From positions 52,658 to 116,657 of the forward strand of contig JAILGE010000007.1 of assembly GCA_024697065.1 (NCBI GenBank): a DNA stretch of 64,000 bases. Direction: 5' to 3'. Position numbers and translations under genes: made by a program. This DNA is from Lachnospiraceae bacterium. Lineage in GTDB: Bacteria > Bacillota > Clostridia > Lachnospirales > Lachnospiraceae. This document shows, one piece after another, positions 2,520 to 45,281 of this stretch. Each line of letters begins with the position of its first letter. The first letter of the stretch is position 1. The notes beneath the pieces are model-generated. The model ran no database searches and had not been told where the DNA came from. It worked only from the letters and a program-made list of their open reading frames with translations.

Positions 2520-3734
2520 ATGATGACTTCTACAGGTCAAAACGCAAATTTACCGGATGCTTCGGGAATACTTGGAACAGTATCAAAAAAGCCCGTATCT
2601 GACGGAGATAAGACTTATGGCATGTCGGATATCTTTCCCGCAAATATGCCTGAATCCGTGCCGGGTATCAGCGCAACAGTCGGAAAGGATGTGTTTGACG
2701 GCGCGGAAGATTTCTTCAGCAAAGACCTTATCAATAATATTTTTGAGATATCCAATGAACTGTATTTAAAGATGCGAGATCCCGCTACCAGTGCGGAAGA
2801 GGATCATGTGACGATAATAAGCCTGCTTACGGATCTGGGAAGAAGGCTGGTTAATGCAGACAGAGCAAGCTTCTGGAGACAGGACAAGGAAGCCGGGACC
2901 ATATGGACAGTTTCGGCAACAGGCACCGGCAGGATTGAGATCCCTATCGGAACGGGAATGGTTGGCAAGGCACTGAAAGAAGGCCGGTCGCTTGTGACAA
3001 ATGATCCGTATAATGATCCTTTCTTTAACGCGGAAGTGGACAGGATAACGGGGTATATAACCAAATCCATACTGGTAATGCCTGTTACCAACAGCAGAGG
3101 CGAGTTTATCGGTGCTTATCAGGTCATCAATAAGCTTGATGGGGACGGTAAGTTCAATATACGCAGAGACTGTAAGAGGCTGTCACTGGCAGCATTTATA
3201 TGTTCCATTACTCTTGAGAGCGAATTGTTCCTGGCTGATGCTGAGAGAGACCGCCTCACAAAGGTACGTAACCGAATAGGTTTTTATCATGATTTCAGTA
3301 TGAGATATGGTGATGGTATAGACAGAAGGGGCAATATGATCGGATCCATGATAATGTGTGATATCGATCATTTTAAAGCTGTAAATGATACCTATGGGCA
3401 TAATGCGGGTGATGCTGTTTTGCGTCATGTTGCTGCTATTGCAGCAGGATCTTTGCGAAGAACGGATACCGTATACAGATGGGGCGGTGAGGAATTCATA
3501 GTATTGCTCAATGATACAGGCATAGAGGGTGCTGTAGCTACCGCTGAAAAGATAAGGGCTGCCGTGGAAGCATCAGAGTGTATATTTGACGGAACGGCTA
3601 TAAGTGTTACTTTAAGCTTCGGCTGCGGGGATATCGATCCTTCTAAGTCGGCTGAAGAAAATATCGCAGTTTGCGACAGGAGATTATATAAAGCTAAAGA
3701 AACCGGGAGAAACCGTGTGGTAAGTGAAGGGTAA
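2520..3734 (+). CDS. GAF domain diguanylate cyclase (GGDEF)
   Basis: GAF-like region (PFFNAEVDRITGYITKSIL) followed by DIDHFKAVNDTYGHNAGD and RWGGEEF. RxxD I-site (RRTD) is present. Confidence 0.92.
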   Translation: MMTSTGQNANLPDASGILGTVSKKPVSDGDKTYGMSDIFPANMPESVPGISATVGKDVFDGAEDFFSKDLINNIFEISNELYLKMRDPATSAEEDHVTIISLLTDLGRRLVNADRASFWRQDKEAGTIWTVSATGTGRIEIPIGTGMVGKALKEGRSLVTNDPYNDPFFNAEVDRITGYITKSILVMPVTNSRGEFIGAYQVINKLDGDGKFNIRRDCKRLSLAAFICSITLESELFLADAERDRLTKVRNRIGFYHDFSMRYGDGIDRRGNMIGSMIMCDIDHFKAVNDTYGHNAGDAVLRHVAAIAAGSLRRTDTVYRWGGEEFIVLLNDTGIEGAVATAEKIRAAVEASECIFDGTAISVTLSFGCGDIDPSKSAEENIAVCDRRLYKAKETGRNRVVSEG

Positions 3735-3786
3735 TGATACGGAGGGACAGTAACGACATATTGATCAGATAAAAAGTTGGACAGGG

Positions 3787-5715
3787 ATGGATAAGATTAA
3801 TAAAGAAAATAAAAAAATAAGCGGATTTGTATATGATGTGCTTTGCATGATCCTGGTGGCAGGTATTGTTTTTTTCCTGACTGTTACCAATGCTTTTACA
3901 AGACTCGATCACATGGCCGGAGATGCACTTTATCAGACCCCGCGCGGTGTATCCGGTCAGATCAAGATAATCGGTATTGATGAAAAAACGCTGGAAAAAT
4001 ACGGCCCCATTAATACCTGGTCCAGATCCGTCTATGCAGAGCTTATAAAAACCCTCACGGCCGATAAGGATAATAAACCGGATATCATCGGTATGGATAT
4101 ACAATTCTCGGGACATGTGGATGAGGCCGGAGATCGGGCTTTTGCGGAGGCGGCAAAAGAATTCGGAGACGTGGTTGTAGTGGGACAGTTTATATATGAA
4201 GATATGCCTCTGACGGATGAGAACGGTATTACCTATTATCCCATTAGGGATTTTTACCTTCCTTATGAAGAACTGGCGGCGGAATGTAATATCGGATACT
4301 CAAATGTTTCACAGGACTCTGACGGTACAGTCAGACGTATTTCCACGGAAAACGCCTATAAGGGGATTACTTACAAAAGTTTTCCCTGGATGATATACCA
4401 AAAGTACTGTGAAAAGAGAAATGAAGAACCGGGGCTTTATTCCATAGACAGATACGGAAGATCCATCATAGATTATTCCGGACGTCCCGGTGATTATGAG
4501 TATATTTCCATGGAAGATGTTTTGGAAGGAAGGATAGATCCCCGTGCCTTTGCCGGATGTATTGTTCTTGTAGGAGCATATGCTCCGGGAATGATGGATA
4601 ATTATAATGTTCCCACCGGAGGAACCCGGCAGATGTACGGTGTGGAAATACATGCGAATATACTTCAGGCCTTTATGCAAAACCGTTTTTCCGTAAACGG
4701 AGATCCGTATTTCTTCGGAGCGATCCTTGCCCTGGCAGCGGCCCTTGTGGTGTTTGCTTTCAGGAGAATGCGTGTTATCGGAGCATCTGTATGCGGTATT
4801 GCTGCAATTGCGGCAGAAGTTGTGTTTGGTGTATTCCTTCATAATAAACACGGTATAGTCATAAGCATAATTTATTTTCCTATAGTGCTTATCGTCTTCT
4901 ATATATACCTCCTGGTGAAGAAATATCTGCAGGAGTATATGAATAAAGCAAGGATACTTAAGGCTTTCAGCAAATATGTTGCCCCGCAGATCATACAGGA
5001 AATATCGGAAACCGGTAATTTCAAAGTAAGTCTTGGCGGTGAGAGCAGGGATATATCGGCTTTGTTTGTTGATATACGTGGCTTTACAACCATGTCCGAG
5101 GCACTGAGTCCCGAGGATGTTGTGGCTATACTGAATCAGTATCTTGCGCTTACTACTAAAGCAGTTTTCGACAATATGGGTACTTTGGATAAGTTTGTCG
5201 GCGACTGCACCATGGCAGTGTTTAATTCTCCTTTTGATCTTGATGATTATGAATTTAAAAGCGTATGTGCCGCAATGGATATCGCAATGGGAAGCGAGCC
5301 GTTGAACAACAGGATCGAAGAACAGTTTGGAAGGAAGATCGGATTCGGGGTAGGAGTTAACTGCGGCCCGGCAGTAACGGGAAATATAGGTTGCGACTTC
5401 AGGATGGACTATACAGCAATAGGAGATACGGTTAATACCGCTGCGAGACTTGAAGCCAATGCGGGAGCGGGAAAGGTCTATATCAGCGATGTCCTTTATG
5501 CCAGAGTAAAGGAGAGAGTGGATGTGGAGGAAGTTGGCGTTATCCCGCTGAAGGGTAAGAAAAACGGTGTGGTTGTTTATTCTGTAACAGCTGTTCATAA
5601 GGATATTCCGGCTCCGGAACCGAAAGAAATGGAAAGACGCAGAAAGCTTTACTGCGTAGCCGGCAACATGCCGGATGAGAGTGAGGAGAAGATTGAAGAA
5701 TCGGGAATAAAATGA
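3787..5715 (+). CDS. CHASE2-domain membrane class III adenylate cyclase
   Basis: N-terminal TM and CHASE2-like region (IIGIDEKTL, GVEIHANIL), then 3 TMs. Cyclase motifs FVDIRGFT, DKFVGD and DYTAIGDTVNTAARLE, with K/D residues of the ATP-specific type. Confidence 0.92.
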   Translation: MDKINKENKKISGFVYDVLCMILVAGIVFFLTVTNAFTRLDHMAGDALYQTPRGVSGQIKIIGIDEKTLEKYGPINTWSRSVYAELIKTLTADKDNKPDIIGMDIQFSGHVDEAGDRAFAEAAKEFGDVVVVGQFIYEDMPLTDENGITYYPIRDFYLPYEELAAECNIGYSNVSQDSDGTVRRISTENAYKGITYKSFPWMIYQKYCEKRNEEPGLYSIDRYGRSIIDYSGRPGDYEYISMEDVLEGRIDPRAFAGCIVLVGAYAPGMMDNYNVPTGGTRQMYGVEIHANILQAFMQNRFSVNGDPYFFGAILALAAALVVFAFRRMRVIGASVCGIAAIAAEVVFGVFLHNKHGIVISIIYFPIVLIVFYIYLLVKKYLQEYMNKARILKAFSKYVAPQIIQEISETGNFKVSLGGESRDISALFVDIRGFTTMSEALSPEDVVAILNQYLALTTKAVFDNMGTLDKFVGDCTMAVFNSPFDLDDYEFKSVCAAMDIAMGSEPLNNRIEEQFGRKIGFGVGVNCGPAVTGNIGCDFRMDYTAIGDTVNTAARLEANAGAGKVYISDVLYARVKERVDVEEVGVIPLKGKKNGVVVYSVTAVHKDIPAPEPKEMERRRKLYCVAGNMPDESEEKIEESGIK

Positions 5716-5836
5716 TGGAACTGAAAAAACAAGGAAATACTAAATCTGTGAATTATCTCCCCAGGCGCAATGAGTATACAAATAACAAAGAAATACAGAG
5801 ATGTAAAATTTTATTATAGAAATATTCGAAAAAGTG

Positions 5837-5864
5837 TTGACAAATAATTATCATGTGGTAGTAT
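5837..5864 (+). promoter_or_regulatory. Strong sigma-A promoter driving the intergenic RNA
   Basis: TTGACA at 5837-5842, 16-bp spacer, extended -10 TGgTAGTAT (5856-5864), and an AT-rich upstream tract. Confidence 0.8.
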
Positions 5865-5869
5865 ATAGA

Positions 5870-6360
5870 CATAGCAACAACACTAGTTGTTGATCACATA
5901 GATCAGAAAGGCGGATCAATGAAACGGATGACAGCAGAAAGGTTGTCTAGGATTACTTGAAGAAGGAGGTACGGTCCACCCGAAAGCTAAGTAAAGTACT
6001 TCAGAGGGAAGGTTCCTAAACAGATGGATGAATTGCATATCGTAACGAGAAAGCGAACAGCGCTCTGTCAATGTGGAACATGAAATCGAGAGGTACAGGA
6101 AGTCGGATCACAGCTTATTTAGGTTTCATCAAAGGAGATAGCGACAGGAAAGCAACAGTCGCGGTTCCGTAGAACCAAAGGTGAAGGATGATGGGCAGAG
6201 AGATCCGGATCGGTAGTCAATTGAATATCGGGGATGTCCGCGATGAGAATCGGTAAACGGACGAAAAGCAGTCAGAATTTATGGAGGTATGGTCCATTGG
6301 ACTACGAATCAGAGTGAGGGCCCTTGCAGATCGAAAATCGGATTTGCAGGGGCTTTCATT
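5870..6360 (+). ncRNA. Candidate large structured non-coding RNA (~490 nt), family unassigned
   Basis: Own promoter and terminator; no ORF of 60 aa or more. Hairpins at 5930-5947, 6141-6162, 6163-6176 and 6236-6262 (GAGA tetraloop). Long-range helices 5919-5925/6123-6129 and 6213-6221/6296-6305. Purine-rich strand. Confidence 0.72.
6313..6360 (+). terminator. Terminator closing the candidate ncRNA
   Basis: GCCCTTGCAGATC...GATTTGCAGGGGC stem (6320-6353), extendable to 6313-6360, followed by TTTCATT. Confidence 0.75.
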
Positions 6361-6456
6361 ATGCGTATTAATATGTTAATATAGCTTTTAATTGTTACAT
6401 TATGTTAACAATTGGATGGATTTTTAATAGAACATGTTTTACGGATGGGAAATGAA

Positions 6457-7842
6457 ATGAGCGAGAATGATAAGATCAATCCTGATGATGCGAAGAGCGT
6501 CAAGAGAAAGATAAGACACAGACGCAGGGTGCGCAATCAGATTTTGTCATATGTTGTATTGCTGATCCTTATAGGGATAGTTTCGGCGGCAGGTGTTATA
6601 GGCGCCAAAAAACTGGTATCTCTGTTTGTTGAGCAGAAGGCCAGGGATGAGGCTGCCATTTCGGAGAATCTGGCATCCCAGGATTCGGTTTCGGATGAGA
6701 ATCTTACAATATCTTCGCCTGATGCAATAAATACTCCTTCGGAGAATTCGGTTTCGGATAATGCTGAAGAGATCGAAGAAAAACCTGAGACGGATCCGGA
6801 GATACTTGCGCTCATTGAATCCATGACACCGGAACAGAAGGCTGGGGCGCTTTTCATGGTAAGCCCTGAGGCTATTACAGGCGTTGACATCGCGACCAGA
6901 GCAGGCGACGGAACGAAGGCGGCTTTGGAAAAATACCCTGTTGGTGCTATCGTGTACAGTAAGCAGAATGTGCTTGATAAGAATCAGTTCATTACCATGG
7001 TGGGGACCACCAGAGAAATGTATGACGGTATATATGCTGCAGATAATGAACTTTTCAGTTTGATGACAGCTGTCAGAGAAGAAGGAGCATTCAATGCCAT
7101 CGCTGAAGGAACGGGAGAAAAAGCAGCAACAGCCGCTTCTGATATCGGAGCATCCGGCGATAAGACCAATGCTTATCAGGCATATCTTGAAATAGGAAGC
7201 TATCTGAATAAGTATCAGATCGATATTGATATCGCTCCTGTCTGCGATGTGGCATCAGAGGGTGGTTATTTCCAGGGGAACAGATCCTTTGGTACCGATG
7301 CTGAAGCTGTGGCTTCCATGACGGCATCTGCAGTATCAGGTCTTTCGGATCAGTCTATCGTATCATGTCTCTCTACATTCCCGGGACAGGGCAGTGTGAC
7401 TGACGGTATCACAGGGGGCAGTACTGCAACGGACAGAAGTCTGGATGATATAAGAGGCTTCGAATATAAGCCTTTTGTTTCCGCTATTGATGAGGGCGCA
7501 GGAATGGTAATGGTAGGTAACCTTGCTGTGGCCGAAGAAGACGGCGCACGAGTTCCTTCCTATATATCTTATGAAATGATCACCGAAGAGCTTAAGGGAG
7601 AACTGGGCTTTGAAGGAGTGGTCATAACCGACGATCTTTCAGTTATCGCAAAGGGGGCGGAATTTGATCAGGGAGAGGCTGCTCTTCGTGCCATAAATGC
7701 AGGCGCGGATATGATCTATGTATCCGGAGATTTTGAGAACACCTATAATGAGGTCCTTAAGGCGATCAATGACGGAGCTATTACAGAGGAGAGACTTAAT
7801 GATGCTCTCGCAAGGATTTATACATTAAAATCCGAAATGTAA
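6457..7842 (+). CDS. Membrane-anchored GH3 (NagZ-like) protein with degenerate active-site motifs
   Basis: Basic N-terminus, a TM and an acidic linker precede a GH3 N-terminal barrel (APVCDV, RSFG, GFEGVVITDDL, AGADMI). The KHFPGHG-type motif reads STFPGQG. Start taken at 6457; the ORF track gives 6412. Confidence 0.8.
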   Translation: MSENDKINPDDAKSVKRKIRHRRRVRNQILSYVVLLILIGIVSAAGVIGAKKLVSLFVEQKARDEAAISENLASQDSVSDENLTISSPDAINTPSENSVSDNAEEIEEKPETDPEILALIESMTPEQKAGALFMVSPEAITGVDIATRAGDGTKAALEKYPVGAIVYSKQNVLDKNQFITMVGTTREMYDGIYAADNELFSLMTAVREEGAFNAIAEGTGEKAATAASDIGASGDKTNAYQAYLEIGSYLNKYQIDIDIAPVCDVASEGGYFQGNRSFGTDAEAVASMTASAVSGLSDQSIVSCLSTFPGQGSVTDGITGGSTATDRSLDDIRGFEYKPFVSAIDEGAGMVMVGNLAVAEEDGARVPSYISYEMITEELKGELGFEGVVITDDLSVIAKGAEFDQGEAALRAINAGADMIYVSGDFENTYNEVLKAINDGAITEERLNDALARIYTLKSEM

Positions 7843-7869: not shown

Positions 7870-7898
7870 TTGACAAATGAATACCGATGTAGTAATAT
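7870..7898 (+). promoter_or_regulatory. Promoter of tRNA-Gly
   Basis: TTGACA (7870-7875), 17 bp, TAATAT (7893-7898). A leader hairpin TTTTGTCGC...GCGACAAAA lies at 7902-7931. Confidence 0.75.
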
Positions 7899-7938: not shown

Positions 7939-8011
7939 GCGATAGTGGTGCAGTTGGTAGCACACGACCTTGCCAAGGTTGAGCTCGCGGGTTCGAGTCC
8001 CGTCTATCGCT
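7939..8011 (+). tRNA. tRNA-Gly (GCC)
   Basis: Cloverleaf with acceptor GCGATAG/CTATCGC, anticodon loop TTGCCAA and T loop TTCGAGT. CCA is not encoded. Confidence 0.97.
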
Positions 8012-8018
8012 CGTAAAT

Positions 8019-44945: not shown

Positions 44946-45281
44946 TTGACAACCGCGGTGTGCAGTTGTATAACCGTATTGAGCAAATGCTACGAACAGA
45001 ACAAGAGCTTGTCTGAAACGGATCACAGAGAACTGTCGTATGGTGCGAGACAGTATCACGCCTAATGAGCTTATCCTCTGCGAGCAGTGCACCGAAAGGG
45101 ATTTTTCAAGTAGGTGTCACCGGTTTTCCACCGTTAAAAGGAAGCCTGATAAAAGCCAACCTGTATGTACGGGGCGGAGTCGGGAATGAGTGACCGGATT
45201 TCCGGTAATCAAAGTGGTATCACGGATAGAATGATTATTCGCCTTTGAGATTGCTGTTTTTGCAATTCAAAGGCTTTTTTG
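44946..45281 (+). promoter_or_regulatory. T-box riboswitch leader with promoter and terminator
   Basis: TTGACA-17-TATAAC (44946-44974). Stem I carries AGAGA and GGTGCGA loops; stem II carries AGTA, followed by CCGTTA. T-box AATCAAAGTGGTATCACGG at 45207-45225. Terminator GCCTTTGA...TCAAAGGC plus T6 at 45241-45280. Confidence 0.85.

Follow-up and report, generated by a model that had tools for sequence, protein, structure and literature searches.

A stand-alone gene for a large structured noncoding RNA, very probably of an undescribed family, beside a membrane-anchored GH3 gene in rumen Lachnospiraceae

What is encoded in a gap that holds no sizable reading frame, on a bacterial contig otherwise rich in genes? 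The question is raised by positions 5716-6456 of a 64,000-nucleotide stretch of the Lachnospiraceae bacterium contig JAILGE010000007.1 (hereafter the window, meaning the whole of this stretch). The gap is preceded by a gene for a CHASE2 adenylate/guanylate cyclase (3787-5715, + strand) and followed by a gene for a membrane-anchored, NagZ-like protein of 461 amino acids that belongs to the GH3 family (Pfam PF00933; 6457..7842, + strand). An earlier note, made from the sequence by eye, had proposed a free-standing, ornate noncoding RNA at this place. We find that a large structured noncoding RNA is encoded at 5837-6362 on the + strand by a gene of its own, and that this RNA very probably represents an undescribed large RNA family, absent from Rfam.

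The statement that the gap lacks any open reading frame (ORF) of at least 60 amino acids was borne out, the longest ORF being one of 51 amino acids on the minus strand. No ORF conserved in position was found across the homologs described below, and the RNA is therefore considered to be noncoding. The promoter that had been recognized by eye is present at 5837..5864 (+), with the -35 hexamer TTGACA at 5837-5842, a 16-nt spacer, and the extended -10 element TGgTAGTAT at 5856-5864. It scores 10/12, plus the TG, and falls in one class with the window's tRNA promoters, which have a perfect TTGACA and a 17-nt spacer. From its position we infer a transcription start at ~5869-5872. At the other end, the terminator stem previously placed at 6313-6360 is a helix of 17 pairs, 6314-6330 with 6343-6359, followed by a U-rich tail (6314..6359, +). 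The helix covaries, being 99.2% paired with double changes at five pairs in the 28 aligned sequences, and the long GC-rich hairpin both terminates and protects the transcript. The mature RNA (5870..6362, +; ~490 nt), placed by contigs from rumen RNA runs, with ends drawn from the promoter and the terminator, is purine-rich (A 33%, G 29%).

A discrete, abundant transcript, as anticipated for such a gene, was found in rumen metatranscriptomes. The RNA stretch is present in cattle and sheep samples from at least 14 different studies, at 0.69-0.82 of sampled words, and the adjoining GH3 gene reaches at most 0.11 of sampled words in any RNA run. Contigs from the RNA runs span 5881-6333 only, with neither flank covered. 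In run X12, for which the initial 20 kb of the window were examined, the contig of the RNA has a depth of 2723x as compared with 2-7x for the protein-coding neighbors of the same organism, and read depth drops ~1000-fold past the terminator. The RNA is a real, discrete transcript, ~1000x as abundant as nearby mRNAs. The contigs end ~15 nt inside the predicted start and within the loop of the terminator hairpin, a behavior expected of short-read assemblies at transcript ends and palindromes. A separate contig of run X12, 6312-6572, leads from the terminator into GH3 at a depth of 2.6x.

Is the RNA peculiar to this organism? Homologous RNAs were found at the same place on contigs encoding relatives of the GH3 protein. 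The signature pattern GGAGGTANGGTCC-N18-30-CCCTTGCAG has matches in 18 GTDB species, all of them rumen Lachnospiraceae, and a slightly looser version matched 11 metagenome contigs. The copy in the cultured isolate Lachnospiraceae bacterium XPB1003 scores 524.5 bits, as compared with 526.7 for the window's own. These RNAs, which we call type I, amount to ~31 distinct sequences of 400-516 nt and comprise four main clades, three shortened forms (loci L017, L022, and L035), and the divergent L006. There is one copy per locus and one in the 64-kb window. In the close relatives L007-L009, 283 nt separate the genes for aspartate kinase and GH3, and no RNA is present. A type II RNA of ~430 nt, very purine-rich, which was found by way of the GH3 gene and occurs elsewhere in the Lachnospiraceae, precedes more distantly related GH3 genes (38-44% identity) that lie in another neighborhood. 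It keeps the same promoter type, CACAUAGA, GGAUGAUAG, both copies of a signature motif described below (M1 and M2), and a terminator of its own, and in a reciprocal nhmmer search the type II profile has a single match in the 64-kb window, at the RNA (E = 3.3e-7). Both promoter hexamers are kept in the type I, L006, and type II homologs.

Does the family share a fold? The + strand at 5868-6362 folds with -150 kcal/mol (z = -5.5 relative to dinucleotide shuffles), compared with z = -1.5 for the - strand; the type I RNA of L010 gives z = -6.2. An RNAalifold consensus of 20 sequences contains 65 pairs, 19 of them with compensatory changes. Refinement clade by clade yielded a model of 12 helices and 74 pairs, counted on 28 sequences; isolated covarying column pairs, which are swamped by the four-clade phylogeny, were not used. 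Standard pairs fill 95.3% of cells in the model, compared with 89.4% in shuffles and 35-51% with the partners slid. Twenty-seven of the 74 pairs have changed on both sides (5-8 in the slid controls), and the covariation score is 0.258 versus 0.03-0.085 in the slid controls, with 0 of 500 shuffles reaching the observed value. The homologs that the note had proposed to collect are at hand among the ~31 type I sequences, and their helices covary.

The RNA opens with the 5' hairpin P1 (5875-5881 CAACAAC with 5886-5892 GUUGUUG, +), which is 99.5% paired; its apical pair is swapped between C-G and G-C in 10 sequences, and L006 has CAACAC/GUGUUG. A nearly invariant single-stranded linker, AUCACAUAGA (5893..5902, +), leads to the variable insert V1 (5903..5957, +), which is absent in L017 and L022. 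Beyond M1, helix P3 (5996-6001 GUACUU with 6091-6096 AGGUAC, +; 99.4% paired, with double changes at two pairs, including GCACC/GGGUGC in L035) encloses a variable domain, V2 (6002-6090, +), that is a simple hairpin in L035. The central domain is closed by P4 (6103-6108 UCGGAU with 6203-6208 AUCCGG, +), where 6/6 pairs have changed on both sides. Within it lie P5 (6113-6119 GCUUAUU with 6190-6196 GAUGGGC, +; 99% paired, four pairs with double changes) and P6 (6124-6130 UUUCAUC with 6180-6186 GGUGAAG, +; 100% paired, U-A to C-G in L035), separated by a conserved internal loop, UAGG / GAU. The same domain holds the hairpins P7 (6141-6145 GCGAC with 6158-6162 GUCGC, +), with the equivalents GCAGCG/CGCUGC, GCAACG/CGUUGC, and GCGGUG/CAUCGC, and P8 (6163-6167 GGUUC with 6172-6176 GAACC, +), with the equivalents GCA/UGC, GCG/CGC, and GUU/AAC. 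A conserved junction, GGUAGUCAAUUGAAUAUCGGGG (6212..6233, +), in which CAA..GAAUA is invariant and for which no partner was established, precedes P9 (6236-6240 GUCCG with 6258-6262 CGGAC, +). P9 has a GUAAA bulge and a change from G-C to U-A in clade B, and it contains P9a (6241-6244 with 6249-6252, CGAU-GAGA-AUCG, +), where four different pair types occur.

An invariant motif, GGAGGUAnGGUCCA, is duplicated in the RNA. Its first copy, M1 (AAGGAGGUACGGUCCACC; 5962..5980, +), has the consensus (A/G)GAGGUAYRGUCCACC, of which GAGGUA..G.CC.CC is invariant in the 28 sequences and is kept in L006 and type II. The second copy, M2 (GGAGGUAUGGUCCAUUGGAC / AGGAGGUANGGUCCAUUGGAC; 6283..6302, +), is invariant bar one position in the same 28 sequences and reads GGAGGUAAAGGCCAUUGGAC in type II; it includes a stem of 3 bp (6283-6285 with 6293-6295, +) and an invariant palindrome, GUCCAUUGGAC, at 6292-6302. 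The invariance of AUUGGA within M2 is not an artefact of the search, because AUUGGA lies outside the search pattern. A tentative long-range helix, P2, joins M1 to the end of M2 (5974-5978 GUCCA with 6298-6302 UGGAC, +; 94.3% paired). Both of its strands persist in type II, where the rival partner GUCAA (6216-6220) is not kept. Against P2 stand the lack of any compensatory change and an A-A mismatch in five sequences that have GACCG in M1; in those five and in L006, M1 complements GGUC of M2 itself. Judged from these complementarities, a clamp between M1 and M2 is likely, in either register (with UGGAC after M2 or with GGUC of M2). A helix closing the 5' and 3' ends (CAU/AUG) and an extension of P2 (UAC/GUG), although compatible with 24-28 of the 28 sequences, were left out of the model because they are short, mutually competing, and devoid of compensatory changes.

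How does this architecture compare with the one drawn by eye? All complementary segments listed earlier are present and canonical, and three of the hairpins belong to the model and covary in the 28 homologs: GCGAC/GTCGC is P7, GGTTC/GAACC is P8, and GTCCG-CGAT-GAGA-ATCG-GTAAA-CGGAC is P9 with P9a. The other helices did not extend to the family. The hairpins GACAGC/GTTGTC and TTACTT/AAGTAA are restricted to the window's clade; V1 contains ATGAAAC, GACAGC/GTTGTC, and TTACTT. The long-range helix ATGAAAC/GTTTCAT is likewise found in the window's clade only, and GTTTCATC instead pairs, with covariation, with GGTGAAG/GATGGAG at 6180-6186, forming P6. In the second long-range helix, GTAGTCAAT/ATTGGACTAC, the outer six pairs are again confined to that clade, and the predicted pseudoknot, CAGAG/CTCTG crossing GTTCC/GGAAC, falls in a clade-specific insert where a nested ACAGA/TCTGT uses the same 3' strand. 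Family-wide, these unconfirmed helices are paired in 57.6% of cells, compared with 55.3% in shuffles, a test with little power inside V1 and V2, as alignment is weak in the variable inserts. That the long-range architecture drawn by eye is largely wrong leaves the interpretation of the RNA as a new family unchanged.

Could the RNA belong to a catalogued family? The 4227 models of Rfam 15 were run on the window at the gathering score and on 5700-6480 at E<=10. The window yielded only four tRNAs and one T-box, none of them in the gap, and the permissive cmscan search of 5700-6480 gave noise only; the scan of a type II homolog and seven homolog loci, likewise taken to E<=10, returned no match. 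The models of ROOL (RF03087), GOLLD (RF01998), OLE (RF01071), and raiA, put forward in the note together with RNase P and tmRNA as families to be checked, had no match in the window, at E<=10, or in the seven homolog loci. RNase P (types A and B) had no model match at E<=10, and no T-box, riboswitch aptamer, or leader model matched in the RNA region. The tRNA-like domain and tag frame of a tmRNA were found neither by Rfam nor by ARAGORN, which reported four tRNAs only in the window. The reading by eye that hallmarks of tmRNA, RNase P, and T-box are lacking agrees with these scans. The sole T-box of the window (44983-45249; 93.4 bits against a gathering score of 93) is unrelated to the RNA gene.

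Searches by blastn of 50,697 phage records and 72,556 plasmids gave no match, nor did the signature pattern in IMG/VR viral contigs; 36 viral matches to a shorter pattern were due to chance, as nhmmer matched 0/36. A phage, plasmid, or mobile origin was rejected on the lack of similarity in the phage, plasmid, and IMG/VR collections and on the conserved chromosomal gene order. The location in phages, prophages, or plasmids, often close to clusters of tRNA genes, that is typical of ROOL and GOLLD was not found. The note had wavered between a ROOL-like RNA and an undescribed family; the former has neither a model match nor a phage or plasmid association, and the latter is the identity that stands. 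A literature search (ornate and large RNAs, XPB1003, the motif sequences, full text) found no description, with a small chance that one exists outside the sources searched.

To our knowledge, a new bacterial RNA that is both large and highly structured is a rare find; RNase P, tmRNA, OLE, GOLLD, ROOL, and raiA are the few known. The present RNA resembles several of these in outline and has the defining features of none of ROOL, GOLLD, OLE, raiA, RNase P, tmRNA, T-box, or CsrB-type RNAs. OLE is likewise abundant and structured, ~0.5-0.6 kb long, and found in anaerobic Firmicutes. The OLE RNA gene always lies next to a membrane-protein gene, and OapA is the membrane partner of OLE. In contrast, no oapA gene adjoins the RNA described here, whose neighbors are a CHASE2 cyclase or an aspartate kinase upstream and GH3 downstream. 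The neighbor here is a single-pass GH3 protein rather than OapA, the OLE model does not match, and the RNA is narrowly distributed (Lachnospiraceae) and has its own promoter and terminator rather than lying within an operon. ROOL and GOLLD share with it a large, ornate, multi-junction structure, hosts among rumen and gut Firmicutes, and very high abundance, whereas this RNA is shorter (400-516 nt), has no phage, viral, or plasmid presence, and occupies a fixed chromosomal position with one copy per locus. The raiA motif RNA is also an abundant structured Firmicutes RNA with its own promoter and terminator, but its model does not match, this RNA is ~2x longer with another gene neighbor, and raiA RNA occurs in thousands of species as compared with the few tens known for this family.

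Bacterial RNase P RNA, which is of similar size, required separate consideration. M1 and M2 (GAGGUAcaGUCCA) superficially resemble what we take to be the conserved RNase P sequence GAGGAAAGUCC, and GCUUAU..GUUUCA resembles what is presumably the 3' end of E. coli RNase P RNA, both resemblances serving as leads only. GCUUAUU here pairs with GAUGGGC and not with a GAGG..GUCC motif. The identification was rejected because the covarying helices are incompatible with P4-type pairing and because close relatives lack the RNA at this locus, from which it follows that the RNA is not the essential RNase P RNA.

High abundance, a strong promoter and terminator of its own, and a purine-rich sequence could also suggest a CsrB/RsmZ-type sponge that titrates CsrA or Hfq through GGA and AGGAGG motifs. 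Like CsrB/RsmZ, the RNA stands alone and has repeated GGA-containing motifs; the conserved segments ACAGGAAG, GGAGGAUGA, and AGGAGGU contain GGA, and type II is even more purine-rich and is poorly folded. The number of GGA triplets (13-18, compared with 11-14 expected, standard deviation ~3) is only ~1 standard deviation above composition, however, and most of the conserved GGAs lie inside helices rather than in hairpin loops. The RNA is also much more structured than CsrB/RsmZ, a motif scan of the window found no CsrA-like ORF, and a sponge would leave the fixed position beside GH3 unexplained. We know of no CsrB/RsmZ-type RNA in Firmicutes, and we regard a sponge as improbable.

What, then, accompanies the RNA in its genomes? 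All loci examined have it directly 5' of a GH3 gene and on that gene's strand, and the pair is never separated. In type I the genes follow one another on one strand in the order homoserine dehydrogenase, aspartate kinase, RNA, GH3, tRNA-Gly, HPr, and SH3/3D cell-wall protein. An insertion of GGDEF and CHASE2 genes marks the clade of the window (L001-L003, L023, and L042 besides the window) and no other; in other clades the RNA comes straight after aspartate kinase, and L006 has yet other upstream genes. In the window this insertion, 2520-5715, consists of a GAF-GGDEF diguanylate cyclase and the CHASE2 cyclase. In type II the RNA-GH3 pair comes after an Fe-hydrogenase/MCP gene and a LUD-domain gene and is followed by PadR or a Y1 transposase. 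Across the family the upstream neighbor is aspartate kinase, CHASE2 cyclase, a TetR-family gene region, or a LUD-domain gene, and the downstream neighbor of GH3 is tRNA-Gly followed by HPr, PadR, or a Y1 transposase. The latter, of IS200/IS605 type, is found directly 3' of GH3 in one type II lineage (L051-L054; 4125-4529 in L051), so that rearrangements do occur next to the RNA-GH3 pair without splitting it. The tRNA-Gly(GCC) gene of the window, at 7939-8012, has its own promoter, TTGACA-17-TAATAT (7870-7898), and the same tRNA-Gly follows GH3 in the type I loci scanned (L004, L006, L010, L012, and L017).

An RNA in this position might be a giant cis-acting 5' leader or attenuator of GH3, with a terminator that is opened by a signal, in the manner of a riboswitch, a T-box, or protein-mediated antitermination, and an abundant species that is the terminated leader. 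Its invariable place directly upstream of GH3 on the same strand would fit such a leader, as would the short distance of 95-250 nt between the terminator and the GH3 start codon and the 2.6x contig across 6312-6572. In clades B-E, on the other hand, GH3 has a strong conserved promoter (TTGCAA or TTGATA, 17 nt, TGnTATTAT) within the interval that separates its start codon from the RNA terminator, and given this separate promoter the RNA is not simply a leader of GH3. In the window the corresponding region (6374..6402, +; outside the RNA), with a putative extended -10 element, TGTTAATAT, at 6374-6382 and the motif GTTACATTA at 6394-6402, is weak and was not called by the promoter scan, a point in favor of a leader; it was assigned by analogy with the clear TTGCAA-17-TGnTATTAT promoters of clades C, D, and E, which have GTTTACATAA at the corresponding place. 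A leader is further disfavored by the ~1000x greater abundance of the RNA relative to the downstream gene, by the stable-RNA type of its promoter, and by the lack of a riboswitch or T-box model match. The aligned sequences contain no conserved competitor for the 5' strand of the terminator, with one match in clade C only, and GH3 orthologs exist without the RNA in L007-L009. We consider the leader quite unlikely.

The GH3 promoter is accompanied by a conserved element, GTTTACATAA (GTTACATTA in the window), also in L030, L010, L017, and L035, among others. In loci with the RNA it stands downstream of the -10 element, and in the RNA-less L007/L009 upstream of the -35 element. The 5' end of the RNA starts with ACATAAC, which is similar to GTTTACATAA, and the element may be an operator or a 5' element common to both genes. 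The motif shared by the RNA 5' end and the GH3 5' untranslated region, ACAUAAC / GUUUACAUAA, along with the constant adjacency of the two genes, could be taken to indicate an antisense regulator that pairs with the 5' untranslated region or ribosome-binding site of GH3. Both transcripts carry the motif in one and the same orientation, however, and the two copies are not complementary; the best RNAduplex sites shift between clades and are no better than shuffles (z -2.5 to +1.8), which makes antisense regulation very improbable.

We favor instead an RNA that acts in trans. Its near-consensus sigma-A promoter, of the tRNA-promoter class, drives synthesis, and the long terminal hairpin ends and protects the transcript. 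The RNA folds into P1, a central P4 domain with nested P5, P6, P7, and P8, a side domain of P3 and V2, and a 3' hairpin of P9 and P9a, while the M1 and M2 copies, complementary with the sequence after M2, probably clamp its 5' and 3' halves together. The unpaired purine-rich segments (M1, M2, the P5/P6 loop, and the 6212-6233 junction) may be surfaces for protein or tertiary contacts. By analogy with OLE and OapA, the RNA could be the RNA part of a ribonucleoprotein tied to GH3 and cell-wall turnover. That the RNA both represents a new family and works in trans, as a functional RNA by itself, is, taken jointly, a reasonably probable reading.

A functional tie to the neighboring GH3 as a ribonucleoprotein is proposed because the adjacency, unbroken across deep divergence, is the sole functional clue; by this analogy the tie is possible, and we put it forward tentatively. 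GH3 is a single-pass membrane protein with an Arg-rich tail, R..R..RR.RNQI, beside its membrane helix (residues 17-29; window 6505-6543). No other invariant run in GH3 is as long as this stretch, which does not vary among 12 homologs of only ~40% identity; in type II hosts a poly-acidic stretch of 40-50 residues precedes it. Within the motif, the two orthologs without the RNA carry E at a position occupied by Y, F, or I in those with it. A membrane-bound ribonucleoprotein in which the Arg-rich cytoplasmic tail of GH3 binds the M1/M2 core of the RNA is conceivable on the same analogy, but in this specific form is unlikely.

Several points tell against these readings. The Arg-rich tail is also present in the GH3 orthologs of the RNA-less loci L007-L009 and could simply reflect membrane topology, and the two genes could have stayed together because the spacer between them offers rearrangements a small target. 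Not every member has the ornate architecture, type II being poorly folded (z = -0.4). The pattern by which most homologs were collected required parts of M2 and of the terminator, and invariance there is partly derived from the search. The low-depth contig from 6312 into GH3 amounts to slight read-through, and the exact 5' and 3' ends of the RNA are not given by the contigs.

Alternatively, the RNA may work independently of GH3, as an RNA-only homo-oligomeric particle like ROOL, GOLLD, raiA, or OLE, or as a ribozyme. Its size, many junctions, and covarying helices are consistent with this, as are its many invariant unpaired nucleotides, and the invariant palindrome GUCCAUUGGAC of M2 could pair two molecules in a dimer. 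Known ornate RNAs are reported to form such complexes (DOI 10.1101/2024.12.08.627333). The RNA has no homology to ROOL, GOLLD, raiA, or OLE, though, type II members have little predicted structure, and the link to GH3 would go unexplained; an RNA-only particle or a ribozyme is unlikely. The trans-acting RNA of a new family, possibly partnered with GH3, is the reading that we retain.

Some further observations concern the transcript and the GH3 protein. At 6122, in the P5/P6 loop, the window has G, whereas A is found in 4/4 rumen RNA runs showing the site and in the homologs L003, L023, and L042 (UUUAAGUUUC); this is strain variation, not editing. A contig of run X8 joins 6130 to 6279 at a depth of 28, skipping 148 nt, with its junction between the GGAG repeats AAAGGAG / AUGGAGG, and may stem from chimeric assembly or from a natural variant of shorter length. 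At a loose end before window position 6110, a contig of the same run bears the form of the RNA found in clade C (L026-like; AGCAGGCAGGGTACAGGAGAACCGGATCAG), joined at the conserved AGCTTATTTA, and several members of the family are therefore co-expressed in one rumen sample. In the GH3 protein of the window (residues ~306-321, ~7372-7419) the KH...D-x-H acid/base dyad of NagZ/YbbD is lacking (STFPGQGSVTDGITGG versus KHFPGHGDTDVDSH), as is the DQEGG substrate loop (REEGA in its place), and the nucleophile region VVITDD is kept; type II GH3 orthologs keep KHFPGLG..DTH. As far as these motifs tell, type I GH3 proteins may be inactive or mechanistically different.

Each of the known large RNAs has opened new biochemistry or structural biology. 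The RNA described here ranks with the most abundant transcripts that its hosts make in the rumen and recurs in many independent metatranscriptomes of cattle and sheep, where reads from such RNAs are currently unannotated. It combines a fold supported by covariation with an unusual duplicated signature motif, its strictly conserved gene partner, GH3, offers a concrete handle on function, and the cultured host XPB1003 makes that function directly testable. Should the tail of GH3 indeed bind the RNA, an abundant cytoplasmic RNA would be coupled to an extracellular domain that binds or trims peptidoglycan. Such a coupling would provide a second, independent case of the OLE/OapA principle, this time linked with the turnover of the cell wall, in one of the major groups of fiber-degrading rumen bacteria.

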